A stretch of DNA of 52,713 nt from a virus (lineage: Duplodnaviria > Caudoviricetes), in the IMG/VR virus record IMGVR_UViG_3300037882_001471, positions 1-52,713 of that record, one strand, 5' to 3'. Positions 2,307 through 39,176 of this stretch are shown in pieces. The notes beneath the pieces are model-generated. The model had not been told where the DNA came from. It saw nothing but the letters and a program-made list of their open reading frames with translations, and did not search any database. The position numbers and the translations under genes were made by a program. Within the stretch, counting starts at the first letter, position 1, and each line of letters starts with the position of its first letter.

Positions 2307-2503
2307 TCCGGCTTCCTTACAGTTGGGCAGCTTGCCGGCGGCATGGGCGGTGTCTGATCTAGCACTACTTCATATCCGTAATGTTTCAGAATATCGACAG
2401 CAAGGCCGACAAGCCAGCCGCGCACCATTGACGTGCGCCCGGTCGCAATGAGCAGGTTGATAGCTTTTACGGCTTCTTGGTATCGTTGATCTTCGATTGC
2501 CAT
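2303..2503 (-). CDS. hypothetical protein
   Basis: 66 aa ORF closing the leftward operon. Confidence 0.5.
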   Translation of the reverse strand: MAIEDQRYQEAVKAINLLIATGRTSMVRGWLVGLAVDILKHYGYEVVLDQTPPMPPASCPTVRKPD

Positions 2504-23862: not shown

Positions 23863-24059
23863 GCTATCACGCCTATCCGCGATCCGGTAAATGGATTCTC
23901 ACCCGCACGGGCGGCAAGCGCGCGCTCAAACGCTACGATACCGAGCGCGAAGCATGGAAAGAGGCAAAAACCCGTGCCGCATCGGAGCATGTCATCGCTT
24001 ATTTGCACGATCACACTGGCAGAATCGTAAAAAGGGTTCCGAGCTTTGAAGAAAACTGA
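23859..24059 (+). CDS. DUF2188-like small protein
   Basis: HxYP..GKW...GGKRA...DTEREA...HDHTGRI. Confidence 0.6.
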   Translation: MSYHAYPRSGKWILTRTGGKRALKRYDTEREAWKEAKTRAASEHVIAYLHDHTGRIVKRVPSFEEN

Positions 24060-24228
24060 TGGCCTGACTTTCGAGCAGTGGCTTGGGCTGGTTGCCAGAT
24101 CGGAAAAATGGAACGGCAAGATGAGAACTCCCCGCGCTTGGAAAGTTCTGTACGATCAAAATTTGAGTTTCGAGGAAGCTGCGGTGAGCACCGCCGTTAA
24201 ACTCTACAACGTAAAAAATCAATACTAG
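24046..24228 (+). CDS. hypothetical protein
   Basis: Overlapping ORF at end of operon. Confidence 0.45.
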   Translation: MKKTDGLTFEQWLGLVARSEKWNGKMRTPRAWKVLYDQNLSFEEAAVSTAVKLYNVKNQY

Positions 24229-24271
24229 ATGTAGCTTACACTTTGACATTATGCCCAATATGTAGCATTCT
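24222..24271 (+). promoter_or_regulatory. terS promoter overlapped by tandem NrdR-like boxes
   Basis: TTGACA(24243)-17-CATTCT; ataCtAgATgTaGctt (24222-24237) and gccCaAtATgTaGcat (24253-24268), 31 bp apart. Confidence 0.6.
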
Positions 24272-24277
24272 TGGGGC

Positions 24278-24889
24278 ATGACGGAGCAACTAACCACACC
24301 TACAAAGGCATATGATCTGCTTGAGCATTACGAACGCCAAGCGGTTGATGACTATGTAAATTATGCCATAAACCAGCAGTATCATCGCCGGCAGCGTATC
24401 GCGCTCGCGCTCTATGTTCCCATCCCGTCCGAACTGGTACGGCGCTCCAAAGGCGTGCTGGCAAAGCCGCTGGCGCGCGCTGCGGTGGCTGAAAAGCTGA
24501 CCGATGCGGCGAACGAACAAGACCTTTCCCCTGACCGAGTGATTCACGAGCACGCGGTGATCGGTTTCAGCAATATTGCCGATTATTTACAGATCGGCAC
24601 GTTTGGGGATTTCTCAATTAAAAATCTTGACAGCATCCCGCGTCATTTACTCGCGGCGGTGAAGTCGATGAAAACCATTCCGTCACCTTATGGGTTACGC
24701 ACGGAGATCACACTGCACGACAAGCATCCTTCCTTGAAGGTTCTCACCGAACTGATGGGCCTTGTCGCGCCTGACCGCCCCCCGGCGCTGGCGGATTATT
24801 CCAAGCCGCCGGAACAGGATCAAATCGGAGAAGGAGCACCCGAAACCGCATATGCCGCACTACTCGAATCTTCGCAGATGCGGCAATGA
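24278..24889 (+). CDS. terS: terminase small subunit
   Basis: RVIHEHAVIGFSNIADY...EITLHDKHPSLKVL pattern; directly upstream of TerL. Confidence 0.75.
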   Translation: MTEQLTTPTKAYDLLEHYERQAVDDYVNYAINQQYHRRQRIALALYVPIPSELVRRSKGVLAKPLARAAVAEKLTDAANEQDLSPDRVIHEHAVIGFSNIADYLQIGTFGDFSIKNLDSIPRHLLAAVKSMKTIPSPYGLRTEITLHDKHPSLKVLTELMGLVAPDRPPALADYSKPPEQDQIGEGAPETAYAALLESSQMRQ

Positions 24890-24893
24890 TTAA

Positions 24894-26633
24894 ATGGATG
24901 ATCTGTTCGGTTTATATCGTAAGCAGACCCAGCAGGTAAGCCTAGCCGTAAGGCCGCGCGCGCTCGCGCATCAGCAATGGCCTCCTGACTATGACGCGGT
25001 GTACCGGTGGCGGCATGAAACACTGCTCAAGCTGAAGAAAGATGCGAAGCTGCTGGCGAGCAGCAAAACATATTATTCCGCGCGACCCGCAGAATTCATC
25101 ATGGATTGGATGGACACTTACGATCCGCGTAATACAGAGCGCAAATGGATGCCGTTTGTTTTTTTCATGCGGCAGAGTGATCTGGTGGAGTTTTTAGAAG
25201 CGTGCGCGATCGACCAGGAATCCGGGCTGATTGAAAAAGCGCGCGACATGGGCGCAACGTGGGTATGCTGCGGCTATACGATCTGGCGCTGGCTATTTAT
25301 TAAGAGCGATGCGATCGGCTGGGGTTCGCGCAAGGAAATGCTGGTAGATACGCTTGGTGATCCCGATAGCATTTTCGAAAAGCTGCGGCTGCTGGTGCGC
25401 CGCTTGCCGACTGTGTTTCATCCGAAGGATTTTAATTGGGCGCGCCACGCAACGTTCCTCAAACTCATCAACCCGGAGAATGGCAGCATCGTTTCCGGTG
25501 AGGCGGGTGACAATATCGGTCGCGGTGGTCGTAAGTCGATCTTCTTTAAAGACGAATCGGCGCACTATGAGCGCCCGGAGAAAATCGAATCGGCGCTTGG
25601 TGACAATACCCGCGTACAGATCGACATCTCATCGGTCAACGGACTTGGCAACGTGTTTCATCGGCGCGCAGAGCACGCGGTAGAATGGACGCGCGGGCGC
25701 GAGTTGCCGAAAGGATTCGTGCGTAAATTCATCATGGACTGGCGCGACAATCCGATGAAAAGTGAGGAATGGTATCAAACGCGCCGCGCGAAATATGAAC
25801 GCGAAGGTCTGCTGCACGTTTTTGCGCAGGAAGTTGATCGCAACTATTCCGCCGCCATCAGCAACACCGTTATCGAATATCACTGGATTCGCGCTGCTAT
25901 CGATTCACATATCAAAGTACCGTACATTGCCGCTGCATATGCAGAACTGAAAAAGCATAATGAAATTTATTGGTGGGGCGGCTTGGACGTGGCCGACGAG
26001 GGTGATGACCGCAATGCTATGGCGCTCCGCGAATGGATTATCTGGCGCTCCGCTGACGAATGGGGTGAACGCGATCCTGGCATGAGCGCCCGTCGCGCCA
26101 TCGGTATGTGCCAGCCGCATTCCGGCAATATCCAATGCATGTACGATTCCATCGGTATCGGCGCGAGCGTCAAAAGCGAATATAACCGGCTCACGGAGGA
26201 TGAGAAGATCATCGATCAACGCCTGATTCCGTTCATCCCGTGGAATGCCGGTGCTGCCGTGCTTGAGCCGTTCAATCGCATCATCCCTGACGATGATAAA
26301 AGTTTACTTAATAAAGATTTCTATGAGAACCTTAAGGCGCAGGCGTGGTGGTCGCTGCGCACGCGCTTTTACAAGACGTATAAAGCGGTCACAGAAGGGA
26401 TAATGTACCCGGTGGATCAGTTGATCAGCCTCGATAGCACAATGCCCCTGCTGGACTCGATATGCAAGGAATTGGCACAGCCCACGCACGTTAAATCCCA
26501 CAGGCTTAAAACCATGATCGATAAGAAGCCAAAAGGGACGAAATCCCCCAACTTGGCCGATAGCGGCGTACTGGCATATTTCCCTGTTCCGGGTGATTCC
26601 AGCGTGGTTCAGGTGGGGGTGTATGGTCATTGA
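24894..26633 (+). CDS. terL: terminase large subunit
   Basis: EKARDMGATW Walker A variant, FKDESA Walker B, GLDVADEGDD and KSPNLADS RNase H-like nuclease motifs. Confidence 0.93.
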   Translation: MDDLFGLYRKQTQQVSLAVRPRALAHQQWPPDYDAVYRWRHETLLKLKKDAKLLASSKTYYSARPAEFIMDWMDTYDPRNTERKWMPFVFFMRQSDLVEFLEACAIDQESGLIEKARDMGATWVCCGYTIWRWLFIKSDAIGWGSRKEMLVDTLGDPDSIFEKLRLLVRRLPTVFHPKDFNWARHATFLKLINPENGSIVSGEAGDNIGRGGRKSIFFKDESAHYERPEKIESALGDNTRVQIDISSVNGLGNVFHRRAEHAVEWTRGRELPKGFVRKFIMDWRDNPMKSEEWYQTRRAKYEREGLLHVFAQEVDRNYSAAISNTVIEYHWIRAAIDSHIKVPYIAAAYAELKKHNEIYWWGGLDVADEGDDRNAMALREWIIWRSADEWGERDPGMSARRAIGMCQPHSGNIQCMYDSIGIGASVKSEYNRLTEDEKIIDQRLIPFIPWNAGAAVLEPFNRIIPDDDKSLLNKDFYENLKAQAWWSLRTRFYKTYKAVTEGIMYPVDQLISLDSTMPLLDSICKELAQPTHVKSHRLKTMIDKKPKGTKSPNLADSGVLAYFPVPGDSSVVQVGVYGH

Positions 26634-26637
26634 TGTA

Positions 26638-26653
26638 ACACAAGATATGGTGT
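26638..26653. promoter_or_regulatory. NrdR-like box upstream of portal
   Basis: acaCaAgATaTgGtgt, near-perfect match to acaCwAtATaTwGtgt. Confidence 0.6.
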
Positions 26654-26710
26654 TCTGGCCTTTACTTCCCAACAATAAGCAGTTAATATCGCACCAAAAG
26701 GGGAGCTATT

Positions 26711-28204
26711 ATGGCCGCTGAAGTCCATCCGTTGCTGGTTCGCGCTAAAGATGTAGCCTCGATGGTTCCGTATTGGGATCAGGTAGAGGCGATCGTAGAG
26801 GGTTATGAAGCCGTGAAATCGGCAGGCAAAACCTATCTTCCCATGTTCCCCGATGAAACCGTAACCGATTACGGTTTCCGCCTTGAATGCACAAAATTCA
26901 CGAACATTTATCGTGACGTGCTTGAAGGTCTTGCCACCAAACCTTTTGAGGAAGAAATCACGCTCATTGCAGGCGCGGGTTCCGGCAAAGATGGCAAAGG
27001 TGAAGTCGATCCTGAAGCAGCAGCGTTCGCAGAAGATGTGGACGGCGCGGGAAATAATCTCAGCATGTTCGCGGCGCTGACTTTCTTCAGCGGCATCAAT
27101 GAAGCGATTAACTGGATTTTTGTCGATTATCCTGTTGTCGAATTGCAGCCTGGTCAAGTGATCTCGCAGGCTGAAGCGAAACAGAAAAATCTGAAGCCGT
27201 TCTGGTCGCATGTGCTCGCGCGCAATGTGTATGAAGTTCGCACGAAAATTATCGGCGCGAAAGAACTGCTCACCTACATTCGCATCTTCGAACCGGCAAG
27301 CGACACGATAACAAAAGATCGCGTGCGCGTGTTCCAACGCAGCGATGATGGTGTTGTGACATGGGAGCTTTTCGAGAAGAATGAGGAAGCGAAGGAAATC
27401 GAAAATCAGATGGTCAGGATCGGCGGCGGCACTCTGAGCATCGACGTGATTCCGTTCGTGCCGTTCATCACCGGTCGCCGGGATGGGCGCACTTTTAAAT
27501 TCTCACCTGTCATGCGCGATGCTGCGGATTTGCAGATGACGCTTTACAAAAACGAATCGGCGCTGGAATTCATCAAGGTCATGGCGGGCTATCCGATGCT
27601 CGCTGCGAACGGAATGAAGCCGCAGATGGGGCCGGATGGTAAAACGCCTCTCAAGCTCGCCATTGGCCCGATGCGCGTGTTATACGGTGTGCCTGATGGG
27701 GCGGGCAACAGCGGATCGTGGAGCTTCATCGAGCCGAATGCAAATTCGATGGAATTCCTGCAAAAGAACATCGACAAAACCAAGCAGGATTTGCGTGAAC
27801 TCGGTCGCCAGCCGCTTACCGCGCTGTCGAGCCAGCTTACCACCGTGACCACTTCCATTGCCGCCGGTAAAGCCCGCAGTGCTGTGACTGCATGGGCGCT
27901 GGCGCTCAAGGATGCGCTGGAAAATGCGCTCAAGATCACGATGAAATACATGAACAGCGTGGTAGAGCCGGAAGTGAATGTTTACACCGGATTCGACAAC
28001 GTGACCGATGACGGCAGCGATCTCGAAGCGCTCGCCACGGCACGCGAGAATGGCGACATCTCGCAGGAAACTTATCTGTTCGAATTGAAGCGGCGCAAGG
28101 TTCTTTCGCCGGAATTCAATTACGAAGCGGAGAAAAAACGCTTGCTCAACGACATTCCCGCCGGGGGTGAAGAAGACGAGCCAAAGAATCCAGGCGATGC
28201 ATAA
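26711..28204 (+). CDS. portal protein (DUF4055-like)
   Basis: AGKTYLP...Y..RL, VIPFVPF, GDISQETYLFELKRRKVL; follows TerL. Confidence 0.88.
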   Translation: MAAEVHPLLVRAKDVASMVPYWDQVEAIVEGYEAVKSAGKTYLPMFPDETVTDYGFRLECTKFTNIYRDVLEGLATKPFEEEITLIAGAGSGKDGKGEVDPEAAAFAEDVDGAGNNLSMFAALTFFSGINEAINWIFVDYPVVELQPGQVISQAEAKQKNLKPFWSHVLARNVYEVRTKIIGAKELLTYIRIFEPASDTITKDRVRVFQRSDDGVVTWELFEKNEEAKEIENQMVRIGGGTLSIDVIPFVPFITGRRDGRTFKFSPVMRDAADLQMTLYKNESALEFIKVMAGYPMLAANGMKPQMGPDGKTPLKLAIGPMRVLYGVPDGAGNSGSWSFIEPNANSMEFLQKNIDKTKQDLRELGRQPLTALSSQLTTVTTSIAAGKARSAVTAWALALKDALENALKITMKYMNSVVEPEVNVYTGFDNVTDDGSDLEALATARENGDISQETYLFELKRRKVLSPEFNYEAEKKRLLNDIPAGGEEDEPKNPGDA

Positions 28205-28234
28205 ACCTGATTCACACACTAGGAGATTAGTATC

Positions 28235-29050
28235 ATGAAAAGACTTTTTACTACGGTGAGCTTCCTCGCGTTTTTGAGCGCTCACGATAACGGCACGCCC
28301 GGTTGGAAACTGGACGCTGAAGGCAAGATCGTACTGAAAGACGGCAACCCTGTTTACATCAACGCCAGCGGTCAGGAGCAGACTGTTGGAGGCGATACCA
28401 TCAGCAATCTCAATAAAGAATCGAAGGCTCATCGTGAGCGCGCGGAGGCGGCGGAAGCAAAGCTGAAACCGTTCGAAGGTATCGATGTCGAAGCCGCCAA
28501 GAAAGCGCTCGAAACCGTGAAGAATATCGATGCCAAAAAACTCATCGATGCAGGTGAAGTCGAAAAGGTGAAAGACCAGATCAAAAAAGAATTCACCACG
28601 CAACTCGAAGAAAAAGACAAGACCACTCAAACTCTGCAACAGCGTATCGATAACATGCTTGTGGACGGTATTTTCTCGAACTCCACTTTCGTTCGTGACA
28701 ACATCGCCGTGCCGCAGGATATGTTTCAGGCTGCGTTCCGCAATAACTTCAAAATCGAAGACGGCAAGATCATAACTTACGATAAATCGGGCAATCGCCT
28801 GATGAGCAAGCAGCGTGCCGGTGAATATGCTGATCCTGAAGAAGCTCTGCAACTGCTTGTGGAGATGCACCCGCAGAAGGAAACCATTCTGAAAGCCAAT
28901 CCCGGTAGCGGCACTGGCAATCAGGGCGGTGGCGGCAACCGTGGCACGGGCCGTGTCATGAAACGTGCTGAATTCGAGAAGCTGCCCCCCGCTGGTCAGG
29001 CAGATATTTCGGGCAAAGTTTCGAAGGGTGAAATGCAGCTTGTTGACTGA
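28235..29050 (+). CDS. capsid scaffolding protein (DUF6651-like)
   Basis: KLDAEGKIVLKDGNPVY, KLIDAGEVEKVK, GEYADPEEAL, M.RAEFEKL; between portal and capsid. Confidence 0.85.
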   Translation: MKRLFTTVSFLAFLSAHDNGTPGWKLDAEGKIVLKDGNPVYINASGQEQTVGGDTISNLNKESKAHRERAEAAEAKLKPFEGIDVEAAKKALETVKNIDAKKLIDAGEVEKVKDQIKKEFTTQLEEKDKTTQTLQQRIDNMLVDGIFSNSTFVRDNIAVPQDMFQAAFRNNFKIEDGKIITYDKSGNRLMSKQRAGEYADPEEALQLLVEMHPQKETILKANPGSGTGNQGGGGNRGTGRVMKRAEFEKLPPAGQADISGKVSKGEMQLVD

Positions 29051-29062
29051 TTCTAAAGCCAG

Positions 29063-29091
29063 TTGACGAATTGCTCTGACTATCGTATAGT
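29063..29091 (+). promoter_or_regulatory. sigma70-like promoter for major capsid gene
   Basis: TTGACG-17-TATAGT. Confidence 0.75.
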
Positions 29092-29100
29092 TACACTGCA

Positions 29101-29140
29101 TCGTTTTGGATGAAACGAAGCGCTTAGGTTGGATGACCTT
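29101..29140 (+). promoter_or_regulatory. twin TGGATG-loop hairpins in capsid mRNA leader
   Basis: TCGTTT-TGGATG-AAACGA and AGGT-TGGATG-ACCT. Confidence 0.65.
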
Positions 29141-29218
29141 ACAATTTTTGGTTAAACAATTGGCGCTTCGTTTCTTCTATTCATGGAAGTTGCGCCGCTA
29201 AACAAGAGGTGTACTTTT

Positions 29219-30439
29219 ATGAATAAGACTGCAAAGAAGAAGAAAGTTGCGACTTTCAATATTCTGTCGGGAGCATACGCCTCGGCAAATACCCTCACCG
29301 GACTGATCCCCGATCTCTACGCTGGCCTCGAAGTGGTTTCGCGTGAACTCGTGGGCTTCATTCCCTCCGTAACACGCAATGCGAACGCAGAACGCGCGGC
29401 TCTGGATGAGTATGTCACTTATCCGATCGCTCCGCTGCCGACCGCCTTCAACGTGACTCCGGCGATGGCAATCCCTGAACCCACCGATCAGACAATCGGC
29501 TACGGTCAGATGCGCATCACCAAATCACGCGGTGTGAACTTCGGCTACATCGGTGAAGAACAGAAGGGTCTGAATAACGGCCCCGGCTACATGAGTGTGA
29601 TGGCGCAACAGTTTGCGCAGGCACTTCGTGTTCTCACCAACGAAATCGAAGTCGATCTGGCAACCGAAGCTGCTGCCAATGCCTGCCGCGCTTACGGCGC
29701 TTCCGGCACGACTCCGTTCGCAACCAACGTGGGTGAATCCGCGCAGATTCGTAAGATTCTCGATGACAATGGCGCGCCGCCTTCTGGCCGCTCGCTGATC
29801 ATCGATACGACTGCCGGTGCAAACCTCCGCACGCTCGCTCAGTTGACGAAAGCCAACGAAGCCGGCACGACCATGACTCTGCGCCAAGGCGAAATCCTTG
29901 ACCTGAATGGTCTGTCGATCAAGGAATCGGCTGGCATCGTGCGTCCCGCAGTCGGTACGAACAACGGTTCGGCCTCTACCAACAACGCTGGTTACGCTGT
30001 TGGCTCCACCACGTTCACGCTGGCTTCGGCTGGTACTGGTACGATCGTAGCGGGTGATTACATCACCTTCGCGGGCGATACCAATAAGTACCTGGTCGTA
30101 ACCGGTGATGCTGACGTGTCTGGTGGTGGTACGATCGTGATTGCCGCACCTGGCATCAAGATCGCTATCCCGGCCTCCAACACCGTGATCACGACCGTTG
30201 CGATCACCACCCGCAACATCGCCTTCAGCCAGGATGCTCTGCACCTGGTGGCACGCGCCCCGGCGCTGCCGCAGGAAGGTGATGCCGCGATCGATCGCTT
30301 CACTCTGACTGATCCGCGTAGCGGCCTGGTATTCGAGGTGTCTCTGTACCCCGGCTACCGCAAAATCCGCGCCGAAGTAACGATGGCGTGGGGTGTGAAG
30401 GCCACGAAGCGTCAACATATCGCCGCGCTACTCGGTTAA
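29219..30439 (+). CDS. major capsid protein (P22 coat-like, HK97 fold)
   Basis: ANTLTGLIPDLYAGLEVVSRELVGFIP, RKILDDNGAP, TDPRSGLVFEV, AWGVKA; RBS AAGAGG before ATG 29219. Confidence 0.9.
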   Translation: MNKTAKKKKVATFNILSGAYASANTLTGLIPDLYAGLEVVSRELVGFIPSVTRNANAERAALDEYVTYPIAPLPTAFNVTPAMAIPEPTDQTIGYGQMRITKSRGVNFGYIGEEQKGLNNGPGYMSVMAQQFAQALRVLTNEIEVDLATEAAANACRAYGASGTTPFATNVGESAQIRKILDDNGAPPSGRSLIIDTTAGANLRTLAQLTKANEAGTTMTLRQGEILDLNGLSIKESAGIVRPAVGTNNGSASTNNAGYAVGSTTFTLASAGTGTIVAGDYITFAGDTNKYLVVTGDADVSGGGTIVIAAPGIKIAIPASNTVITTVAITTRNIAFSQDALHLVARAPALPQEGDAAIDRFTLTDPRSGLVFEVSLYPGYRKIRAEVTMAWGVKATKRQHIAALLG

Positions 30440-30500
30440 TCTCCTAGTGTGTGACGATGGTTCCCCTACGGTTAGTTGCTCCTTTCCGTGGGGGAATTTC
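30434..30500 (+). ncRNA. capsid 3'-UTR hairpin/terminator carrying anti-RBS sequences (candidate sRNA)
   Basis: 11-bp stem 30461-30471/30486-30496, loop ttagttgctccttt, short U tail; 30437-30454 is the reverse complement of 28212-28229. Confidence 0.55.
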
Positions 30501-30515
30501 TAAGAGAGGTAGGCC

Positions 30516-31040
30516 ATGAATAAGAATACCATTCGCGTTGAACGCGGCACGATAATGAAACTGACCGCCGCTGCTGCGGCTACGGTATGGCTTCTCAAAG
30601 CTGGTCAGCAAGAAACCCTGCACGCAAGTCTAGCTGCCGGTGAAGAACTGTTCTTAGGGCCGTATTTCAACACTGTCGAATTCAGTGCTGTATCGGAACT
30701 CCCTGTGACCGTTGCGAATCAAGCCGAAGATTTCGATGCGCCGGTAGGCATCTTCGATTACATTCCGCCTCGCAATGTCACGCGCCCGGTTGTTTCCGGC
30801 ACGACCGAAACCGGTGAAGACCTTTCCGTAACCAACGGCGTATGGCTCGGCAATGCTACCATCACTTTCGCTTATCAGTGGAATCGTGACGGTGTTGCAA
30901 TTACCGACGCTGATGAAGCGACTTACGAACTGGTTGAAGATGACGAGGACGCTGACATTACCTGCACTGTCACCGCGACGAATTCTCTTGGCTCCACCAG
31001 TGCTTTGAGTAATGAAGTAGGCCCGATTACCGCGCCGTAA
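30516..31040 (+). CDS. Ig-like domain head decoration protein
   Basis: C-terminal PVVSGT..GEDL...G.W....FAYQWNRDG...ITCTVTATNS. Confidence 0.7.
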   Translation: MNKNTIRVERGTIMKLTAAAAATVWLLKAGQQETLHASLAAGEELFLGPYFNTVEFSAVSELPVTVANQAEDFDAPVGIFDYIPPRNVTRPVVSGTTETGEDLSVTNGVWLGNATITFAYQWNRDGVAITDADEATYELVEDDEDADITCTVTATNSLGSTSALSNEVGPITAP

Positions 31041-31115
31041 TAATAATTTGACGGTTCGGTAAAAAGGTTATAATCTGCGATCACTACTTTTCGCAACCAA
31101 ACCAAGGAGAATTTT

Positions 31116-31613
31116 ATGAGCGAGCAAGTACCCACAGTGAAGGTCAAGATGAAGGGTGATAAGAGCAAGGAAACCTTCGTCATCAACATGACCGATTTCA
31201 ACAAAGACAAGCACGAGATGGTCAAGGGCGAAGAACTGCCGCCGCTGAAGCCGCTCGATCCCGCGCAGAAAGAATCTCTGTACGGCAGCAGCAAGCAGCC
31301 TTCCTCGTGGAAGCTGGACAACGGCTCAACCGTGCAACTCGGTGACGTGGTTCGCGCCGCATTCGAAAAGAGCGGCCTGACTGAAGAACAGTGGAATGCC
31401 ATACCGCAGGACGATCGTGAGTCCCACATCGCCGCTATGGTGAAGGAAATGATTCCTTCCCCGCCTCCCTTCAAGGTAGCGAAGCGCGGTCGCGGTAACG
31501 CAACCAAATTCTTCGTGATCAATACCGTTGAAGGAACGCCGGTTGGCGAAGAAGAATACGCCACCGAAGCCGAAGCGCTCAACAAAATTACTGAACTGAC
31601 ACAGGCCGCGTAA
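31116..31613 (+). CDS. hypothetical head-module protein
   Basis: AAGGAG RBS; VPTVKV...VINMTDF motif seen after capsid genes. Confidence 0.6.
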   Translation: MSEQVPTVKVKMKGDKSKETFVINMTDFNKDKHEMVKGEELPPLKPLDPAQKESLYGSSKQPSSWKLDNGSTVQLGDVVRAAFEKSGLTEEQWNAIPQDDRESHIAAMVKEMIPSPPPFKVAKRGRGNATKFFVINTVEGTPVGEEEYATEAEALNKITELTQAA

Positions 31614-32119
31614 TGTACGGAACAGCGGAAGGCTTTGCAGCATACCATGAAAGCCGGGGTCGTGAGATTCCCGGCACATGGAGCGATGACACTATCGAAG
31701 CTGCATTGCTTTCCGCTTCCGAATGGATTGACAGCATATATGGCCCGTCCTTCATCGGTCACAAAACCGATGGATTCGAGCAGGAAAATGAATGGCCGCG
31801 CACAAATGCCGTGGTCATGGATTCCACACCTGCTTACGTTTACGATACCGATGCGATTCCCGCGCGCGTCACGAAAGCCGCATACGAAGCCGCATGGCGG
31901 CAGGCAACCACCCCCGGATCGCTGTTGGTGGATTATACCCCCGGCAAGTATAAGAGCGTCAGCATTGATGGCGCATTGAGCGTGGAATATCGCCAGTTCG
32001 ATAGCGCATACGAAGTGCAGGTGCAGATCGGCGCAGTTGATACATTGCTCTGGCCGCTGCTGGATATGTCTTCTGGCGGAAAGACCAGCACCTTGTCTGG
32101 TGCTGCGAGCCGTGTATGA
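31613..32119 (+). CDS. head-tail adaptor (DnaT-like)
   Basis: MYGT...AYHESRG, AALLSASEWID, Q..EWPR, IPARV.KAAYEAA. Confidence 0.8.
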   Translation: MYGTAEGFAAYHESRGREIPGTWSDDTIEAALLSASEWIDSIYGPSFIGHKTDGFEQENEWPRTNAVVMDSTPAYVYDTDAIPARVTKAAYEAAWRQATTPGSLLVDYTPGKYKSVSIDGALSVEYRQFDSAYEVQVQIGAVDTLLWPLLDMSSGGKTSTLSGAASRV

Positions 32120-32382
32120 AGACGAAACTGGTAGCTCCTTCAGAACCAGTATTAGCAGCCCGCACGGATGTTCTCGCTACTTTGAAGAAGCATCAGGAGA
32201 AATTAACTGCTGAAGAAATTCTTGCAGTTATGGCGCATCTCGTCGGGCAAATCATTGCTTTTCAAGATCAGCATAAAATTACCCGTGAAGCGGCGCTGAG
32301 TCTGGTCATTGCAAACATCGAGGCGGGCAATGCGGAAGCGATCGCATCGCTTTATAACGCACCGCCGGGAGGTCACGCATGA
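32116..32382 (+). CDS. hypothetical protein inserted in neck module
   Basis: ATGA-coupled on both sides. Confidence 0.6.
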   Translation: MKTKLVAPSEPVLAARTDVLATLKKHQEKLTAEEILAVMAHLVGQIIAFQDQHKITREAALSLVIANIEAGNAEAIASLYNAPPGGHA

Positions 32383-32735
32383 CCATTTACGATGACATGA
32401 AAACTGTCGGCGCTGAACTGCTGGCTGAATTCAAGCAAGGAACCATCACGCTCGTCCAAATCACACCTGGTGATGGCCCTGCTGATGATCCTGGCGAACC
32501 CGATGAAGATTCCTACACTCTCGATGCTGTTGTAAAAGGAGCGCCCTTCAAATATCTCCGCGATGGTTTCGTTACCGCAACGGATTTGCTGGTAACAGCA
32601 GCCGTGATCGACGGAGTGACACCGACCAAGAATGATTTCATTGAAATTGATGGTGTTAGGTGTAAGATAATTGAGGACGTGAGCGCACCGAGCGCAGGCA
32701 CAAGGGCTGTGTGGAAGTTCCTCGTCCGTAGGTGA
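32379..32735 (+). CDS. head-closure / head-tail joining protein
   Basis: YDDM...ELLAEFKQG, DG.....DL, D.IEIDG; synteny. Confidence 0.7.
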   Translation: MTIYDDMKTVGAELLAEFKQGTITLVQITPGDGPADDPGEPDEDSYTLDAVVKGAPFKYLRDGFVTATDLLVTAAVIDGVTPTKNDFIEIDGVRCKIIEDVSAPSAGTRAVWKFLVRR

Positions 32736-32741
32736 GGACGC

Positions 32742-33776
32742 ATGGCAATTTATTCCACACTGGAAAAGATCGAAGCTCTGAAGATACCAGAAGTTCGACG
32801 GATATTCCTTGAAGTGATGCAAGACATCGTGGACGGCGCGATGATCGATGAGATGATCGCCGCCATCGAAGCGAACGATGCCGAAAGGTTGTTCCGCGCC
32901 ACCGGGTTCACTCCTGCGGCGCTCGGCCCCATCCTTGATTCCATCGAGCAAATTTATCAGGATTCTGCGGAAACCACCGTGGCCGGCTGGCCGAAAAGAA
33001 TCCGCACGCCTACCGGTCTTTTCCTATTTCGCTTCGATATGCGCAACCCGCGCGTGGAACAGGATTTGAAAACGATCTCAAGCAAGCTCATCTCCGCGAT
33101 CGAAGAAGACGTGCGCCAGAATGTGCGCAATGCTTTGCAGCAGGGCGCGATCGACGGCGCGAATCCGCGCGCCACGGCATTGAATATCGTAGGGCGCATC
33201 GATCCTGTGACGAAGAAGCGCACGGGCGGGTTAGTCGGGCTTACCGAACATCAGGGTAATTGGGTACGCAACACACAGCGTTATCTTGAGCAGCTTGATC
33301 CGAAATATTTCAATCTGAAGCTGCGCGATAAGCGGTTTGATAGCCTCGTGCAGAAAGCCATTGATTCAGGTAAAAGCATTCCTAAAGATGACATCGAGCG
33401 CTTGACCACTGCCTATAAAAACAAAGCGCTGAAGCATCGCGGCGATGCCATTGCGCGTACAGAAACCGTGCAGACAATGAATCGCGGTGAATTCATGGCA
33501 AACACTCAGGCTGTAGAGCAAGGGTTGATTGCGCGCGATGCTGTGACGAAAGAATGGGATGATACCGGCGATAAAAAAGTGCGCGGCACGCATCGTTTTC
33601 TCGCTGCGAAATACGGCAAGGGGAAGGGCATCGGTCTTGATGAGCCGTTTGTTTCTTCCTCCGGCGCGCGCATGATGTACCCTGGCGATTCCAGCTTAAA
33701 CGCTGGCGCAGAAGAAATTGTGAACTGCCGATGCCGCCTGCATGTGCGCGTTGACTGGTTAGCGGGGATCGACTAA
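32742..33776 (+). CDS. head morphogenesis protein (Mu gpF / SPP1 gp7 family)
   Basis: IARTET, KEW..TGD..VR.TH, MYPGD, EEIVNCRC. Confidence 0.85.
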   Translation: MAIYSTLEKIEALKIPEVRRIFLEVMQDIVDGAMIDEMIAAIEANDAERLFRATGFTPAALGPILDSIEQIYQDSAETTVAGWPKRIRTPTGLFLFRFDMRNPRVEQDLKTISSKLISAIEEDVRQNVRNALQQGAIDGANPRATALNIVGRIDPVTKKRTGGLVGLTEHQGNWVRNTQRYLEQLDPKYFNLKLRDKRFDSLVQKAIDSGKSIPKDDIERLTTAYKNKALKHRGDAIARTETVQTMNRGEFMANTQAVEQGLIARDAVTKEWDDTGDKKVRGTHRFLAAKYGKGKGIGLDEPFVSSSGARMMYPGDSSLNAGAEEIVNCRCRLHVRVDWLAGID

Positions 33777-34201
33777 TGCCGACTACAGATTTTGAAACTC
33801 AGATCGATACCTTCGTGATCAACACGAAAGAAAGAATGCTTGGCGTTGTCAGGCAGTCGATCAGTAATGTCGTAGAGGAAACGCAGACACCAACCGCGAA
33901 AGGTGGCCGTATGCGCGTTAAAACCGGGTTTCTCCGCACCAGCGGAGGCGCGAGCTTGAATGCGCCGCCTACAGGCCCAACACGCGGTGATAAGCATAAG
34001 GTCTATACATGGGATGCCGACTCAGTAAATGTCGTGCTGGCGAAGATGAAGCTCGGTGATGCGTTCTATTTCGGCTGGACTGCGCACTATGCGAAGTATC
34101 GGGAAATCTACGATGGCTTTCTTGAAGCGGCATCGCAGAACTGGCAAAAGCACGTTGATCGTGCTGTCGCGCGCTTCAAGCAGAAGGATGCTGGTAAATG
34201 A
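33776..34201 (+). CDS. tail completion protein (HK97 gp10-like)
   Basis: GGRMRVKTGFLR.S, GWTA.YA..RE, A.QNW. Confidence 0.75.
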   Translation: MPTTDFETQIDTFVINTKERMLGVVRQSISNVVEETQTPTAKGGRMRVKTGFLRTSGGASLNAPPTGPTRGDKHKVYTWDADSVNVVLAKMKLGDAFYFGWTAHYAKYREIYDGFLEAASQNWQKHVDRAVARFKQKDAGK

Positions 34202-34617
34202 GCAAACCGAAAATAAAATACATCACCAGTAATTTTTTTCCCGTCTATATCGGGATAGCCTTTTGTGAGTCCGAATATCTGCAAGAAATGAAAAGGCTCG
34301 GCGTGAAAGAGATCATGGATTTTAACACGCACGCTGCCAGTGTGAAATATTTGACCAAAGGTGATCACCTGAACTGTGTGATCTGCATCGACCCTGTAAA
34401 ATACAAACATCTTCACCGCAATATGATGGCTGCGATGCTGGCGCACGAAGCAACGCATATTGCGGATTTGGCATTCGAGCACATCGGGGAGAATAAACCA
34501 GGTCAGGAAACCCGCGCTTATTTAGTTCAGGCTATCGTGCAGGATGCACTTTATGCTATGGATGATTTCATGAAGTCAAAGAAGGGGAAAAAACATGGTC
34601 GAAAAAGCAATCGTTGA
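34198..34617 (+). CDS. HExxH zincin-like protein
   Basis: LAHEATHIA...QETRAYL. Confidence 0.6.
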   Translation: MSKPKIKYITSNFFPVYIGIAFCESEYLQEMKRLGVKEIMDFNTHAASVKYLTKGDHLNCVICIDPVKYKHLHRNMMAAMLAHEATHIADLAFEHIGENKPGQETRAYLVQAIVQDALYAMDDFMKSKKGKKHGRKSNR

Positions 34618-35023
34618 GGCGTTGCAGAAAGCGGTTATTGCCGCCGTCGCAGCGTGCGATACTCCTACCCTTCCCGTAAAATATATCGGGCGCAATTTCA
34701 CCCCGCCGGCAGACAATACCGGCTGGCTGGAAATCGTAATCATCCCGAATAACGTCCAAGGTGAATTGTGGGGGCCGGAAAAAACCCATCGTGGAATGCT
34801 GCGACTAATCCTGCACTGGCCGATGAAAGATAAGGGAGCGTATGAACCGTTGGAACTTCTGGAAGACATTTCGAGCTACTTCATCAAAGGCCGCAGATTT
34901 GCGGATCAGGCGGCTACGGTATCGGTCAAAATAAGCGAAGGCCCGGACTTCAGAGGCGTGCTCGAAGAACCCCCGGAAATGCTGCTCCCGATGAGCATAA
35001 GGTACGAGTTTTTCGCTGCTTGA
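34595..35023 (+). CDS. tail terminator protein
   Basis: FTPP...WLE....N, G.L.L.L.WP..KG; precedes tail tube. Confidence 0.7.
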   Translation: MVEKAIVEALQKAVIAAVAACDTPTLPVKYIGRNFTPPADNTGWLEIVIIPNNVQGELWGPEKTHRGMLRLILHWPMKDKGAYEPLELLEDISSYFIKGRRFADQAATVSVKISEGPDFRGVLEEPPEMLLPMSIRYEFFAA

Positions 35024-35048
35024 CAATTCGGCCCTGAAAGCATATTCT
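35020..35048 (+). promoter_or_regulatory. sigma70-like promoter for tail tube operon
   Basis: TTGACA-17-TATTCT. Confidence 0.7.
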
Positions 35049-35060
35049 TAATCCTGCGAA

Positions 35061-35098
35061 GGATCGGATGATCTGACGTGCTAAGGTTGGATGACCTT
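35061..35098 (+). promoter_or_regulatory. twin YGGATG-loop hairpins in tail-tube mRNA leader
   Basis: GGAT-CGGATG-ATCT and AAGGT-TGGATG-ACCTT. Confidence 0.65.
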
Positions 35099-35133
35099 GT
35101 GTTTACAAATTGTAAAAACGAGGGATCATCCAT

Positions 35134-35934
35134 ATGAAAAAGCTCCTGCTTGCCACCAGTTTCCTTGCGAATCTCGCAGCATTCGCCAACTCCAACGCCG
35201 CATCCAAGCTCTACGTTTGCGCGACTGCACAAAATTCCGATCTCGATCAGTCTGAATTCGAAGCCCTTGAATGGGTAGAAATCGGCGCGGTAGGATCGCG
35301 CGGTGAGATGGGTAAAACCACCAACATGCTCACCTACAACACTTGGAACACAAGTGTTTCTCAGAAAGCCAAAGGTACGACCGATGCCGGTTCGCCGGAA
35401 CTCGAAGTCGCCCGCCTACCTGGTGATGCCGGTCAGGATATTCTCCGCACCGCTGCCGCTGTCGGCAACAACAACAACTATGCCTTCAAAGAAGTTCGCG
35501 CCGATGGCACGACTGCCGATAACGGCACGGTGATCTATAACCGTGGCCTTGTCAGCGGCCCGCGCCGCCCCGGTGGTCGCAACGAAGATTTCGATGTGGA
35601 AATCTACACGCTCGGCTTCCAGCAGGAAGAAGTGCTGGTCGATCCCACCAGCGCTGGTGTTGCTCCGTATGTCACGGCCAACCCCGCCATCACCGGCACT
35701 GCCGAAGACGGCGAAACGCTTACCCTCGGCAATGGCACATGGGCTGGCGATGCCACGATCACTTACGCTTACGACTGGTACGCCAACAACGTCAAGCTGG
35801 CCGGTCAGAACGCAAGCACGCTGTTGCTCGCCACGTCGCATGTCGGTAAACGCATTACCGGTCGCGTCACGGCAAGCAATAACAGCGGCAAGGGCTACGC
35901 TACCACGGCTCCGACTGCGGCGGTTGGTGCGTAA
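35134..35934 (+). CDS. major tail tube protein with C-terminal Ig-like domain
   Basis: WVEIGAVGS.GE.G, K.KGTTDAG, DAGQ..L; synteny before chaperone and tape measure. Confidence 0.85.
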   Translation: MKKLLLATSFLANLAAFANSNAASKLYVCATAQNSDLDQSEFEALEWVEIGAVGSRGEMGKTTNMLTYNTWNTSVSQKAKGTTDAGSPELEVARLPGDAGQDILRTAAAVGNNNNYAFKEVRADGTTADNGTVIYNRGLVSGPRRPGGRNEDFDVEIYTLGFQQEEVLVDPTSAGVAPYVTANPAITGTAEDGETLTLGNGTWAGDATITYAYDWYANNVKLAGQNASTLLLATSHVGKRITGRVTASNNSGKGYATTAPTAAVGA

Positions 35935-35966
35935 TCGATAACTGAAGGCAAAAGGAGCAAACCAAA

Positions 35967-36392
35967 ATGGATTTAAGTACCCTCAAGCCGGGTGAGAGGA
36001 TCATCGAGATCGTTCACCCGGCTACGAAAGAACCAGTCGGCATTCGCGTTTCGCTGGTGCATATTCAGGATGAGAGCTTGAAAAAGCTCAAGCGCCAGTT
36101 TCAGGACGAGCGCTATCGCCTCGAATCGAAGGGTAAACATTTCAAGGCTGAGAACGTCGAAAACAACCTCAATGAGTTGAATTTCGCCGTCATCAAAAGC
36201 TGGGAATGGTACAATCCGACCGGCACGAAAGGCGACGAGGGTTTTGACGAATCCAAGCACGCCAACTGGAAGGGTGAAAAATCACCCGTGCTGAATAAAA
36301 AGAACGTGTTCGACATCTTCGAAACGCTCCCGTGGTTCCGTGATCAGATCGGAACAGAAATGGGAGATGACGAGGCTTTTTTTCCTCACTGA
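35967..36392 (+). CDS. tail assembly chaperone (gpG-like)
   Basis: IVHPATKEPVGIRV, PWFRDQI, ends in slippery T TTT TTT. Confidence 0.8.
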   Translation: MDLSTLKPGERIIEIVHPATKEPVGIRVSLVHIQDESLKKLKRQFQDERYRLESKGKHFKAENVENNLNELNFAVIKSWEWYNPTGTKGDEGFDESKHANWKGEKSPVLNKKNVFDIFETLPWFRDQIGTEMGDDEAFFPH

Positions 36393-36805
36393 AGGCCGAA
36401 CTTCAGGACTCGGTACGGATTTACGTTCGGTACGAAATCCCCAACGACGCAGGCGAAACTCGGCGCGAGCGAAATGAGCGCGCCAATGAGCCTACGCCTG
36501 AATTTTCCATTCCTGAAAACGGCAGATTTCTTTGGGATATTTACTTCAAAATAGCCGAGTGCGTCAGCCGCACGCGCGACGGCATTTATCAGCTAATTCC
36601 ACCATCCGAATATGAGGTGTGGTTTCGCCTGATGGATATGCTTGTTTATCCAAGTGAATATGATATTCTAGTCGCAATGGATCGCGCGTTTTGCGATGAG
36701 GCAAATAAGGAGCTAGAAGATAAAAGGAGCAGACAGCAAGAGGAACAGCAGCGCCAAGTTGATCTAGCAAAAAGTCAACGGGGTAGCAGGGGGAAAGCCA
36801 AATGA
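36377..36805 (+). CDS. -1 frameshift extension of tail assembly chaperone (gpGT-like)
   Basis: T7 run 36377-36383; -1 frame open without stop to TGA at 36803-36805, overlapping tape measure start. Confidence 0.8.
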   Translation, partial: FFSSLKAELQDSVRIYVRYEIPNDAGETRRERNERANEPTPEFSIPENGRFLWDIYFKIAECVSRTRDGIYQLIPPSEYEVWFRLMDMLVYPSEYDILVAMDRAFCDEANKELEDKRSRQQEEQQRQVDLAKSQRGSRGKAK

Positions 36806-39174
36806 CAGATATTGCAGAACTTGCTTTCCGCGTCCAAACCGCTGAACTCGACAAGGCCGCTCAGAAACTTGATAAGATCAAGATTGCCGCCTCCGGCGTT
36901 TCCGCCGCCAGCACTCAGACCGCTGCCGTTGTAGAAGGCGCAGCAGTGCGCGTAAGCGCTGCCAAGACATCAATGGCGCGCGCTGACGCTGCGGAAGCTA
37001 CTGCGGCGCTCAAACGCCTTCAGGTGACTAAACAGGCCACACAAGAAGAACTCGCTGCCGCGCGCGCGCTGTCAGCCAAAACGAAATTGGCGCTCGCTGA
37101 CGCTGTTGCAGAACAGCGCCGTGCAAAAGCCCTCTTGGACGCTGCGGCTGCGCAGAAAGCCTCTACAGCGGCACAGCGCGTGGCATTCGGCAACGCTACC
37201 AGCACTTCCCTCGGCGCGACTCAATATCGCGGCCCTGCGCTCGCGGTAAACAACGGGCCGCAAGCGCCAGGTACGCCGAACGATCAGATGCCCAATCGCT
37301 TTAACACAGCGAACATCGCCGCGCAGTTTCAGGACATCGGCGTGACCGCTGCGATGGGCATGAATCCGATGATCATTGCGCTGCAACAGGGTACGCAGTT
37401 GGCGGCGATCATGAACAGTATGCAGAAGCCGATGCAGGGTCTTGCGATCGCGTTCAAGCAGATTTTCAATGCTACCTCGCTTTGGACAATCGGCATTGTC
37501 GCTGCTGTCGCCGCGCTGCTGCAATTCGTCAACTGGACGAGTGTTGCGAAGACCAGCCTGAATCTTTTGGCAGATGGGATTCAGCTTTTACTGCCCTATC
37601 TGGCGGCGATTGCAGCGGGGCTGATGCTGATTTATTCCCGCACGATCATCGCCGGCATCGCATCCCTCGCTACCACGATGGTATCTCTTGCTGCAACCGC
37701 GCTGGCAACCGGTGCGAAGATGGCGATGGCATGGATCATCGGTCTAGGCCCGATTGGATGGATTGCCGCCGCTATCGTGGCGCTCGGCGTGCTGTTTCAG
37801 ATGTTCGGTGTGAACGTGCTGGGTTATGTGAAGACCGCTGTAAATGGCATCGTCGGCGCGTTTGTCGGCGCATTTAATGCGGTCAAGGCGACGTGGAGAA
37901 TGTTACCCGGCGCTATGGGCGACATTGTGATCGGCACGGCAAATATCGTTCTGAAAAAGATCGGTGACATGATCAACGGCTTCATCAGCATGATCAACGG
38001 TCTGGCTGAAAGCCTGCCTGATTGGGCGAAGCCGAAAGACGGCGGTAAAATTACATGGAAGGCAGACCTTCAGATCGAAAATCCGTTCGAAGGTCAGGCC
38101 GCTGCTGCGGGTAAAGCTGCCGGTGACGCATTCAAGGAATCGATGAACGTCGATTATGTTGGCAAGGCGAATGAAGCCGTGCAGAACGTCGCTGATTCCA
38201 TTGCTGGAAAAATCCGTGAGTTCGCATCGGGTATCGGCAAAGAGAAAGATAAAAAGGGAAAGAAAGACCCTTGGGAAGAATTGGTGAAAGGCGCGGAACG
38301 CCAGATTGCCACGATGAAGGCTGAAGCTGAAGCTGTCGGCATGTCGGCAATGGCTGCTGCGAAGTTGAAATATGAAACCGAACTGCTCAATGAAGCGCAG
38401 CAAAAAAATATCAAGCTGACTCCTGAACAAAAGCAAAAAATCGATGAATTAGCGCAGGGAATGGCGACTGCCGAAATTCATGTAAAGCGCGTGAAGGATG
38501 CATTCGAATTTGGCAAAGATGCCGTGCAGGGTTTCTTCCAAGACATGAAACAAGGTTTGCAGGAAGGCAAGAGCCTGTGGGAATCGTTCGGCAATGCCGT
38601 CACCAACGTCCTGAATATAATCTTCGACAAAATGCTCGATAAAGGCACGAATTTACTGTGGGAAGGTTTGGACAAAATGATGGGCGGCGGCTCCGGTGGT
38701 TCCGGCAGCGCGGCTGGTAGCGGTATCGGCAGTTTCCTCTCCGACATCGGTGATTTCCTGTTCAGCGCAAAAGGCAATGCTTTCGGGCGTGGCGGCGCGA
38801 TGGCATTTGCCAAAGGCGGCGCATTCTCCAACAGCGTAGTAAACAGCACGACTCCTTTTGCATTTGCCAATGGCGGCAAATTCGGTGTGATGGGTGAGGC
38901 AGGGCCGGAAGCGGTCATGCCGCTGCATCGCGGCCCGGATGGTTCTCTCGGCGTGCGTACTGCCGGCAACGATAATAACGGCGGTGGAATCGCTGTGGTG
39001 AACATCTATAACAACGGCAATTCGAAGGTCACGACCGAGCAGCGCCAGTCATCGCGCGGTCTTGAAATTGATGTGATGATCGACCAGGCAACGGCGCAGA
39101 ACCTTTCACGTCAGGGTTCTGAATCACGCCGCGCGCTTGATACCGTGAACCAACGTCAACTGATTTCGAGGTAG
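36802..39174 (+). CDS. tail tape measure protein
   Basis: NIAAQFQDIGV...ALQQGTQL and C-terminal FAKGG...GVMGEAGPEAVMPL (lambda H-like). Confidence 0.92.
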   Translation: MTDIAELAFRVQTAELDKAAQKLDKIKIAASGVSAASTQTAAVVEGAAVRVSAAKTSMARADAAEATAALKRLQVTKQATQEELAAARALSAKTKLALADAVAEQRRAKALLDAAAAQKASTAAQRVAFGNATSTSLGATQYRGPALAVNNGPQAPGTPNDQMPNRFNTANIAAQFQDIGVTAAMGMNPMIIALQQGTQLAAIMNSMQKPMQGLAIAFKQIFNATSLWTIGIVAAVAALLQFVNWTSVAKTSLNLLADGIQLLLPYLAAIAAGLMLIYSRTIIAGIASLATTMVSLAATALATGAKMAMAWIIGLGPIGWIAAAIVALGVLFQMFGVNVLGYVKTAVNGIVGAFVGAFNAVKATWRMLPGAMGDIVIGTANIVLKKIGDMINGFISMINGLAESLPDWAKPKDGGKITWKADLQIENPFEGQAAAAGKAAGDAFKESMNVDYVGKANEAVQNVADSIAGKIREFASGIGKEKDKKGKKDPWEELVKGAERQIATMKAEAEAVGMSAMAAAKLKYETELLNEAQQKNIKLTPEQKQKIDELAQGMATAEIHVKRVKDAFEFGKDAVQGFFQDMKQGLQEGKSLWESFGNAVTNVLNIIFDKMLDKGTNLLWEGLDKMMGGGSGGSGSAAGSGIGSFLSDIGDFLFSAKGNAFGRGGAMAFAKGGAFSNSVVNSTTPFAFANGGKFGVMGEAGPEAVMPLHRGPDGSLGVRTAGNDNNGGGIAVVNIYNNGNSKVTTEQRQSSRGLEIDVMIDQATAQNLSRQGSESRRALDTVNQRQLISR

Positions 39175-39176
39175 TT

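Follow-up and report, generated by a model that had tools for sequence, protein, structure and literature searches.

The question raised by the leader of the major capsid protein (MCP) gene in the virus record IMGVR_UViG_3300037882_001471 (52.7 kb; all 52,713 nucleotides of it were analysed and are called here the window) is what purpose is served by two small hairpins with the same loop that stand in tandem between a promoter-like site and the gene, and that recur in the same arrangement before the gene for the major tail (tube) protein (MTP). The record is nearly complete (98% by completeness estimate) and its gene content is that of a siphovirus. The twin hairpins are copies of a conserved RNA element with no match in Rfam. 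The best explanation, given a probability of roughly 0.6, is that they form a conserved cis-acting element for post-transcriptional control, placed at the 5' ends of messages that encode high-copy virion proteins and read by a trans-acting factor. The element probably helps to set the output of the most abundant virion proteins.

Both sets lie on the plus strand. Capsid hairpin 1 occupies 29097-29122, with a lower stem UGC/GCG (29097-29099 with 29120-29122), an upper stem pairing 29101-29107 with 29112-29118 and a GGAU loop at 29108-29111; its letters run TCGTTT (29101-29106), T-GGAT-G (29107-29112) and AAACGA (29113-29118). Capsid hairpin 2, AGGU-U-GGAU-G-ACCU, follows at 29126-29139 (AGGT 29126-29129, T-GGAT-G 29130-29135, ACCT 29136-29139, with the GGAU loop at 29131-29134). 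Tail hairpin 1 lies at 35055-35080, its lower stem formed by about 35055-35058 with 35077-35080, its upper stem by 35061-35065 with 35070-35074 and its GGAU loop at 35066-35069 (GGATC-GGAT-GATCT at 35061-35074). Tail hairpin 2, UAAGGU-U-GGAU-G-ACCUUG, lies at 35082-35099 with its loop at 35089-35092 and holds a 15-mer that is also found in the capsid leader. The spacing from loop to loop is 23 nt in both leaders. Direct reading of the letters thus agrees with the preliminary description of this locus in its hairpin coordinates, its 23-nt spacing and its twin in the tail leader, and exactly two copies of the 15-mer, AGGTTGGATGACCTT, are present (29126-29140 and 35084-35098). With up to three mismatches the count of AGGTTGGATGACCTT is ordinary, 15 of 100 shuffles giving at least two matches. 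The loops had been described as UGGAUG hexaloops; GGAU is present at those sites, but the structure is better described as a GGAU tetraloop on a pyrimidine-purine (Y-R) closing pair. The genes had been correctly named. That at 29219-30439 (plus strand) encodes a major capsid protein of the P22 coat-protein family (phrog_283, E 8.3e-84; PF11651, 29.5 bits against a cut-off of 24) and that at 35134-35934 (plus strand) the major tail tube protein (phrog_158, E 2.1e-24).

It is the pairing of the hairpins that stands out from the composition of the window. Lone GGAT-loop hairpins are about as frequent as chance predicts (8 over the two strands, where 200 dinucleotide shuffles give 8.6 +/- 3.0), and on the plus strand those with at least 4 bp have their loops at 29108, 29131, 35066 and 35089. 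Twin GGAT-loop hairpins 15-35 nt apart were observed twice against a shuffle mean of 0.005, and none of the 200 shuffles contained two. Beyond the two leaders the sole strong look-alike is a lone 7-bp hairpin with a C-GGAU-G loop on the minus strand at 1912-1929 (TTTTGTC GGAT GGTAAAA), within or antisense to the open reading frame (ORF) at 1649-2041 and possibly due to chance.

Related leaders provide evidence that the element is conserved as RNA. In the closest cultured relatives, the Rhizobium/Sinorhizobium phages P106B and RHph_X2_24 of the genus Rigallicvirus, the capsid genes are preceded by a promoter and then by two YGGAUG hairpins 24 nt apart whose stems are different. A sample of 80 IMG/VR loci encoding capsid relatives, out of 595 relatives, contained the exact twin pattern upstream in 30. 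A seed alignment of 29 distinct cores was picked by the pattern YGGATR...YGGATR; RNAalifold recovered both stems from it unaided, 93.5% of the cells were paired against 71.5% after shuffling, seven of the nine pairs had changed on both sides, and the covariation of 0.809 (0.355 shuffled) was reached by 0 of 500 shuffles and compared with at most 0.217 in slid controls. With the covariance model R1, 1.116 Mb yielded 93 matches (E <= 1e-3), every one of them on the strand of the gene, as were 48 of 48 matches in prophage loci. The capsid pair of the window scores 53.1 bits (E 1.7e-11) and the tail pair 45.1 bits (E 2.3e-09). When 88 distinct copies, sequences that share ancestry, were fitted to R1, 93.2% of the cells were paired against 66.5%, all nine pairs had changed on both sides, 242 cells were compensatory and covariation was 0.841 against 0.314. 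The preliminary description had proposed an RNA switch common to the capsid and tail-tube leaders and had named covariation in related leaders as the check; the strong covariation in both stems and the matches on one strand support an element of the two leaders that is RNA-level, conserved and strand-specific.

The anatomy of the element is uniform: a bipartite hairpin 1 (lower stem, internal loop, upper stem), a short linker and hairpin 2. The lower stem of hairpin 1 is typically UGCC(N)/(N')GGCG, and it is because of this stem that the linker appears as a conserved 'GGCGC'. Matched flanks of the lower stem gave a value of 4.93 against 4.40 +/- 0.08 for permuted flanks, and 59 of the 88 copies have at least 5 bp against 36.9. 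The closing pair of the loops varies in relatives (C-G, U.G or U-A) and the loop-to-loop spacing stays within 22-26 nt in all 88 copies. GGAU forms the loop in 83 of the 88 copies of hairpin 1 and 86 of the 88 of hairpin 2, an invariance that is partly by construction, since the seed was chosen by the YGGATR pattern and R1 rewards GGAU. At L043:2468-2523 and L061:1073-1128 (E 0.0013) both hairpins carry UGGACUG loops, that is a GGACU pentaloop, so the loop can change in both copies together. The capsid leaders at L024:6811-6890 and L040:1091-1145 have three GGAU-loop hairpins, not two.

Searches for a known family found none. The whole window gave 0 matches in Rfam 15 at the gathering threshold, permissive Rfam searches of 28950-29300 and 34950-35200 returned only microRNA noise (E 0.28-2.8, far under the gathering scores), and no description of the motif was found in the literature searched. 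Two other readings of the letters were dropped. One was mimicry of the 3' end of 16S ribosomal RNA (rRNA) by the GGUUGGAUGACCU of hairpin 2; in relatives the stems covary away from GGUUGGAUGACCU. The other was a leader-peptide reading of the AUGs in GGAUG: the window, RHph_X2_24 and P106B have short frames that are unlike in both length and end point, and no Shine-Dalgarno spacing fits.

The genes headed by the element are those for scaffold, P22-type coat and tail tube in the relatives, and coat and tail tube in the window phage. Among the 88 distinct copies the next gene was MCP in 51, scaffold in 33 and MTP in four; an earlier tally of 77 matches gave 34 MCP, 30 scaffold, five MTP, one weak TerL and seven without a called gene. 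The proposed pairing of capsid with tail genes stands in so far as both leaders of the window carry the element, but the commonest second site in relatives is the scaffold gene and not the tail gene. At E < 1e-3 the motif is present in 47 of the 80 viral loci and in 27 of 52 prophage loci. Hosts of the prophages span the alpha-, beta- and gamma-proteobacteria and include Phyllobacterium, Xanthobacter, Labrys, Kaistia, Microvirga, Cupriavidus, Paraburkholderia, Pararobbsia, Variovorax, Pseudomonas, Serratia, Pectobacterium, Sodalis and Acinetobacter. Among named phages, coliphage HK639 has the motif before its scaffold gene HK639_05, Caulobacter phage DMCA before its capsid gene and Salicola phage CGphi29 before both scaffold and capsid genes, and scans of these three whole genomes with R1 gave matches at scaffold and MCP leaders only. 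Among 5426 complete E. coli genomes the HK639-type leader was found in 12, where it precedes a 'DUF6651 domain-containing protein'. When five whole host genomes were scanned, with the best 150 first-pass candidates per genome scored, eight of nine matches were leaders of prophage head genes, which indicates a signal specific to phage virion genes and not a host regulon. The ninth (G001:C67, 25.9 bits) has one hairpin only, lies within a host coding frame and was taken as a false positive.

What precedes the element differs with the gene that follows it. A TTGAC-type promoter no more than 60 nt upstream was found for 21 of 51 MCP copies, four of four MTP copies and none of the 33 scaffold copies (control windows 27/1760), and a terminator-like hairpin whose U-run stops 0-6 nt short of the element for 17 of 33 scaffold copies, one of 51 MCP copies and none of the four MTP copies (control 16/1320). 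In the window the capsid leader has a sigma-70-like promoter at 29063-29091 (TTGACG, 17 nt, TATAGT) and the tail-tube leader another at 35020-35048 (TTGACA, 17 nt, TATTCT), both on the plus strand and each with 10 of 12 matches. As had been claimed, promoter-like sites stand ahead of the twin sets, and they are the two best plus-strand sites of this kind in 24000-40000; the promoter-like pattern itself occurs there at 11 sites against 11.3 expected, and so shows no enrichment. Where a promoter is present the distance from the end of the -10 box to the lower stem is 5-19 nt, and this spacing suggests that transcripts would start at or near the base of hairpin 1. With a promoter or the U-run of a terminator just upstream, the element would be the 5'-terminal structure of a primary or a processed message.

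A fold incompatible with hairpin 1 had also been proposed for the capsid leader, and the letters allow it. Positions 29112-29123 (GAAACGAAGCGC) are the exact reverse complement of 29163-29174 (GCGCTTCGTTTC), and this pairing, the core of a long-range helix whose 3' strand is 29161-29178 (plus strand), unzips hairpin 1. Competing folds were judged from per-sequence folds with 40 shuffles each. The minimum-energy fold of the capsid leader (-53.6 kcal/mol, z -7.8 against shuffles) uses the competing helix together with a plus-strand hairpin at 29179-29224 that buries the capsid Shine-Dalgarno sequence (about 29206-29211) and the start codon (29219-29221), and an equivalent of the latter hairpin is found in seven related long leaders. 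To force the twin hairpins costs 15.2 kcal/mol against 1.9 +/- 2.0 in shuffles (0/40), the second strongest competition in the MCP set. An in-frame upstream ATG at 29183-29185 lies in the 5' arm of the 29179-29224 hairpin, the 3' arm of which holds the true start codon; the two regions pair together, and no Shine-Dalgarno sequence precedes the upstream ATG.

In the tail leader the competing segment (35117-35132, plus strand) overlaps the Shine-Dalgarno sequence (GAGGGA, 35120-35125) and in the minimum-energy fold pairs with the loop and 3' half of tail hairpin 2. Here the competition amounts to 11.3 kcal/mol against 1.6 +/- 1.7 (0/40 shuffles). When the hairpins were forced in the four tail leaders the ribosome site opened in three, its unpaired probability rising from 0.36 to 0.59 in the window and from 0.33 to 0.68 and 0.19 to 0.52 in the other two, and in these three the stretch that competes with the hairpins is the ribosome site itself. 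Mutually exclusive folding is therefore real and beyond shuffles in both leaders of the window, but the competing helix misses the ribosome-binding site of the capsid gene.

Over the 51 MCP leaders the competition averaged 6.25 kcal/mol against 3.66 shuffled, with 36 above the shuffle mean (Wilcoxon p 6e-5), and the competitor was often a downstream stretch complementary to GGAUGRNN. The median distance from the start codon is 34 nt in these leaders. A C/A-rich, G-poor stretch of 25-70 nt often separates hairpin 2 from the Shine-Dalgarno sequence in several capsid leaders (L086, L048, L040, L130, L103 and others); such stretches are typical of unstructured, translation-friendly leaders and also of Rho entry sites. 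Scaffold leaders are built differently. Their hairpins are the minimum-energy fold and competition is below that of shuffles (0.69 vs 1.24 kcal/mol, p 0.006); the gap between the last hairpin and the Shine-Dalgarno sequence or AUG is 0-10 nt, and in 22 of 33 a third GGA-loop hairpin stands just before the Shine-Dalgarno sequence. In CGphi29 hairpin 2 adjoins the annotated AUG, and the P106B scaffold leader has no other Shine-Dalgarno-like sequence between the loop and the annotated AUG. In many prophages, not in all, the AUG within the GGAUG of the third hairpin shares the reading frame of the scaffold gene (it does so in L067, L084, L088, L039, L130, L056 and L108, among others), which may reflect common descent or service as an alternative start.

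Several observations weigh against a control element with a reader of its own, in addition to the manner in which the loops were selected. The 88 copies are related by descent, and the counts drawn from them are consequently not independent events. The loop is not absolute either, since GGAA, GGAC, GGACU (in L043 and L061) and GGAG (in L028) also occur. No motif was found in 33 of the 80 viral loci that have the same scaffold and coat families, nor in Pm86, nor in P22, where the best match scored 7 bits; both phages had been considered as members and were rejected for want of a match to R1. Just 15 of the 51 MCP leaders are individually beyond shuffles (no more than 2/40), and on forcing the hairpins the ribosome site opens in eight of the 51 and closes in one. 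In the window capsid leader its unpaired probability is 0.08 whether or not the hairpins are forced, so that a rule by which closed hairpins mean that translation is on fails there. For the same reason a relay of four regions was rejected for this leader, in which closing of hairpin 1 would leave a segment B free, B would pair with the anti-Shine-Dalgarno segment and the Shine-Dalgarno sequence would open.

The rival that survives best dispenses with a ligand. By this account, which is judged doubtful, the hairpins would be a 5'-terminal stabiliser, a ribosome docking platform or both: a paired 5' end resists decay of the RNase E type, and the GGA loops serve as decoy Shine-Dalgarno sequences that hold the 30S subunit near the start, in keeping with ideas on STAB-SD elements and standby sites. 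Stabilisers of this kind include the ompA leader of E. coli and the STAB-SD elements of B. thuringiensis cryIIIA and phage SP82, and the likeness to them lies in the inferred extreme 5' position, after promoters or terminator U-runs, on a primary or processed message and in the Shine-Dalgarno-like loops. The only reader needed would be the anti-Shine-Dalgarno sequence of 16S rRNA, which is common to alpha-, beta- and gamma-proteobacteria and so fits both the host range and the hosts that lack CsrA. In some scaffold leaders, moreover, the only Shine-Dalgarno-like sequence is the GGA of a loop, 5-10 nt from the annotated AUG, and the absence of the motif from host genes in the five host genomes also agrees. 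However, a decoy should favour GGAG, whereas the fourth loop base is U in 83/88 and 86/88 copies, a mismatch to the anti-Shine-Dalgarno sequence by the general pairing rule, and a duplex of 4-5 bp does not form readily with a tetraloop on a closed pair. The ompA and STAB-SD elements are without a conserved loop sequence or without a hairpin, whereas here loop and spacing are fixed; protection of an end needs neither a fixed spacing of 22-26 nt nor two identical loops. The competing helices selected in the MCP and tail leaders suggest switching rather than a static cap.

The candidate implied by the preliminary description was the host regulator CsrA/RsmA, a dimeric global regulator which would bind both GGA loops and control the translation or stability of the capsid and tail messages. 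The SELEX (systematic evolution of ligands by exponential enrichment) consensus of CsrA is RUACARGGAUGU, and well-known sites include leaders such as the hcnA hairpin bound by RsmE and the flhDC 5' end protected by CsrA, together with decoys of the CsrB/RsmZ type. The resemblance is close in that GGA is presented in hairpin loops at two or three sites tens of nucleotides apart, 23 nt in the window and 22-26 nt in the family, which lies within the range of about 10-63 nt for such sites. Another GGA stands at the tail Shine-Dalgarno sequence (35122-35124), the scaffold leaders carry arrays of three GGA-loop hairpins that end at the Shine-Dalgarno sequence, and the location at the 5' end could protect the message. 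CsrA is encoded in four of ten tested hosts, all gamma-proteobacteria (PF02599, E about 1e-25), and could be used in those hosts. The same search, in which positive controls worked, found no PF02599 (E <= 0.001) in the other six motif-prophage host genomes, all alpha or beta (Phyllobacterium, Cupriavidus, Xanthobacter, Kaistia, Labrys and Pararobbsia), and the nearest cultured relatives infect Rhizobium and Sinorhizobium. No CsrA was found in the phage, either in six frames at E <= 1 or among 65 ORFs compared with Pfam. The loops are moreover 4-nt GGAU directly after the closing pyrimidine, without the A-N that precedes GGA in the A-N-GGA-N hexaloop consensus. A global regulator's motif should be widespread, but no copies stood on host messages in the five host genomes; the motif is confined to the leaders of phage virion genes and has no Rfam match. 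Regulation by host CsrA is therefore considered improbable.

An action on transcription is less probable still. The nascent hairpins would modify RNA polymerase, as in antitermination by put RNA, or would act with a phage antiterminator, as do nut/boxB sites. Both copies in the window are directly downstream of promoters, put-like antiterminator RNAs are annotated at other places in the genome of the motif-bearing HK639, and the C-rich, G-poor spacers after many MCP copies could in our judgement be Rho entry sites. Against this, R1 gives a single match in HK639, at the scaffold leader, and misses the annotated putL-like RNA, and the element differs from the put RNAs of HK022/HK639 also in that it often follows a terminator (17 of 33 scaffold leaders) and does not precede it. 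The position of the last scaffold hairpin near the Shine-Dalgarno sequence or AUG and the identity of the tail anti-hairpin with the ribosome site both point to translation. Nor do the loops resemble boxB of lambda or P22, being GGAU tetraloops on the leaders of late structural genes and not GNRA-like pentaloops in early operons (boxA was not searched for). A DNA-level operator, in which the inverted repeats bind a DNA regulator, or a chance repeat is scarcely credible: the site does overlap +1 to +45 of two promoter-like sites, but the stems vary freely with pairing kept, G.U included, around a fixed loop, the reverse of a DNA operator, all 93 matches are on one strand and none of the 200 shuffles had two twins.

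A post-transcriptional control element with a trans-acting reader remains the preferred explanation, and a mechanism can be outlined for it. A reader with two equivalent sites would hold the hairpins closed; the fixed spacing of 22-26 nt in 88 copies fits a two-site reader. In the tail leader and a minority of capsid leaders, where the ribosome-binding site can pair with the 3' half of a hairpin, a held hairpin would free that site and translation would proceed. In the scaffold leaders of relatives, where the last GGA-loop hairpin adjoins or supplies the Shine-Dalgarno sequence, a bound reader would instead block it. In the window capsid leader closing of the hairpins would release about 18 nt of single strand 5' of the hairpin that contains the ribosome site, and by way of speculation a standby site might result. 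Leader hairpins that are read by a protein and alter access to the ribosome site are well known from the translational activation of mom by Com in phage Mu and from the coat-protein operators of MS2 and PP7. The tail leader, in which a held hairpin would free the site, is Com-like in design, and the scaffold leader, with its hairpin at the Shine-Dalgarno sequence and adjoining AUG, is MS2-like. Unlike Com, MS2 and PP7, the present element has two or three identical loops at fixed spacing and serves several genes in phages of three proteobacterial classes. The element thus works like known phage leader operators and CsrA sites, yet it cannot be counted among CsrA, put or boxB sites.

As to the reader, it would not be host CsrA and would most likely be a product of the head module or else host machinery that is conserved universally. 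When the 86 ORFs of the window were compared by tblastn (E < 1e-3) with HK639, CGphi29 and DMCA, only portal, scaffold and MCP had homologues in all three, an intersection that misses remote homologues and small, fast-evolving proteins. On that basis a family-wide reader encoded by the phage would be found among these three; failing that, the reader would be machinery common to all hosts, for instance the ribosome or an RNase. A single recognisable protein that acts on RNA was found in the phage genome, a 3'-5' exoribonuclease, Rv2179c-like (PF16473, E 1.8e-43), at 2467-3036 on the minus strand.

The scaffold, a DUF6651 protein in the window, is an attractive candidate by analogy with phage P22. 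The P22 scaffolding protein is described as autoregulated post-transcriptionally (PMC5529062, citing Casjens & Adams 1985 and Wyckoff & Casjens 1985). The head modules share the order portal, scaffold and P22-family coat, and the element stands before the scaffold and coat genes; unlike the window phage and its relatives, P22 has no copy of the element, and the scaffold here is DUF6651, that of the window having no BLAST similarity to P22 gp8. The structural model of the scaffold (AlphaFold pLDDT, predicted local distance difference test, 76.5) revealed no known RNA-binding fold and no Foldseek match in the PDB at E <= 0.001. We know of no RNA target for the P22 scaffold. In its fullest form, which is put forward tentatively and is judged unlikely, the proposal is that the hairpins, twin in general and triple before scaffold genes, would be an RNA operator by which a head-module protein senses assembly and balances the stoichiometry of the virion. 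The protein would most plausibly be free, unassembled DUF6651 scaffold acting as a dimer or oligomer, which would block its own ribosome site and, by keeping the hairpins of the coat and tail-tube messages closed, open their translation.

Of the other genes around the two leaders, terminase (24894-26633), portal (26711-28204) and scaffold (28235-29050) lie upstream of the capsid gene and a tail terminator gene (34595-35023) upstream of the tail-tube leader. In the alpha-proteobacterial group the scaffold protein carries at its N terminus a hydrophobic, signal-peptide-like extension (28235-28310 in the window) before a conserved WKLD...G.P.Y block; the extension is also present in the scaffold genes of L006, L009, L017, L019, L025, L034, L052, L093 and P106B, and the proteins of the beta/gamma group begin with MKLKLD or MPFK. 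In RHph_X2_24 and P106B small genes on the opposite strand are found between the scaffold and capsid genes (L001:8822-9377 and L002:4330-4846), and the capsid gene that follows this insertion has its own promoter and motif.

Tailed phages need hundreds of copies of scaffold, coat and tail-tube protein in fixed ratios, and how these ratios are set post-transcriptionally is poorly understood. The element described here is a compact RNA signal, backed by covariation, that is tied to exactly those genes in phages of three proteobacterial classes and has no match in the RNA database searched. Its occurrence in coliphage HK639 and in E. coli genomes makes both reader and mechanism accessible to ordinary experiments. 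With the ribosome or an RNase as reader, the element would amount to a portable module for expression and stability. Should the scaffold be the reader, the element would explain a long-standing observation on assembly of the P22 type and would be the first defined RNA target for a scaffold autoregulation that has been known in P22 since the 1980s only genetically.

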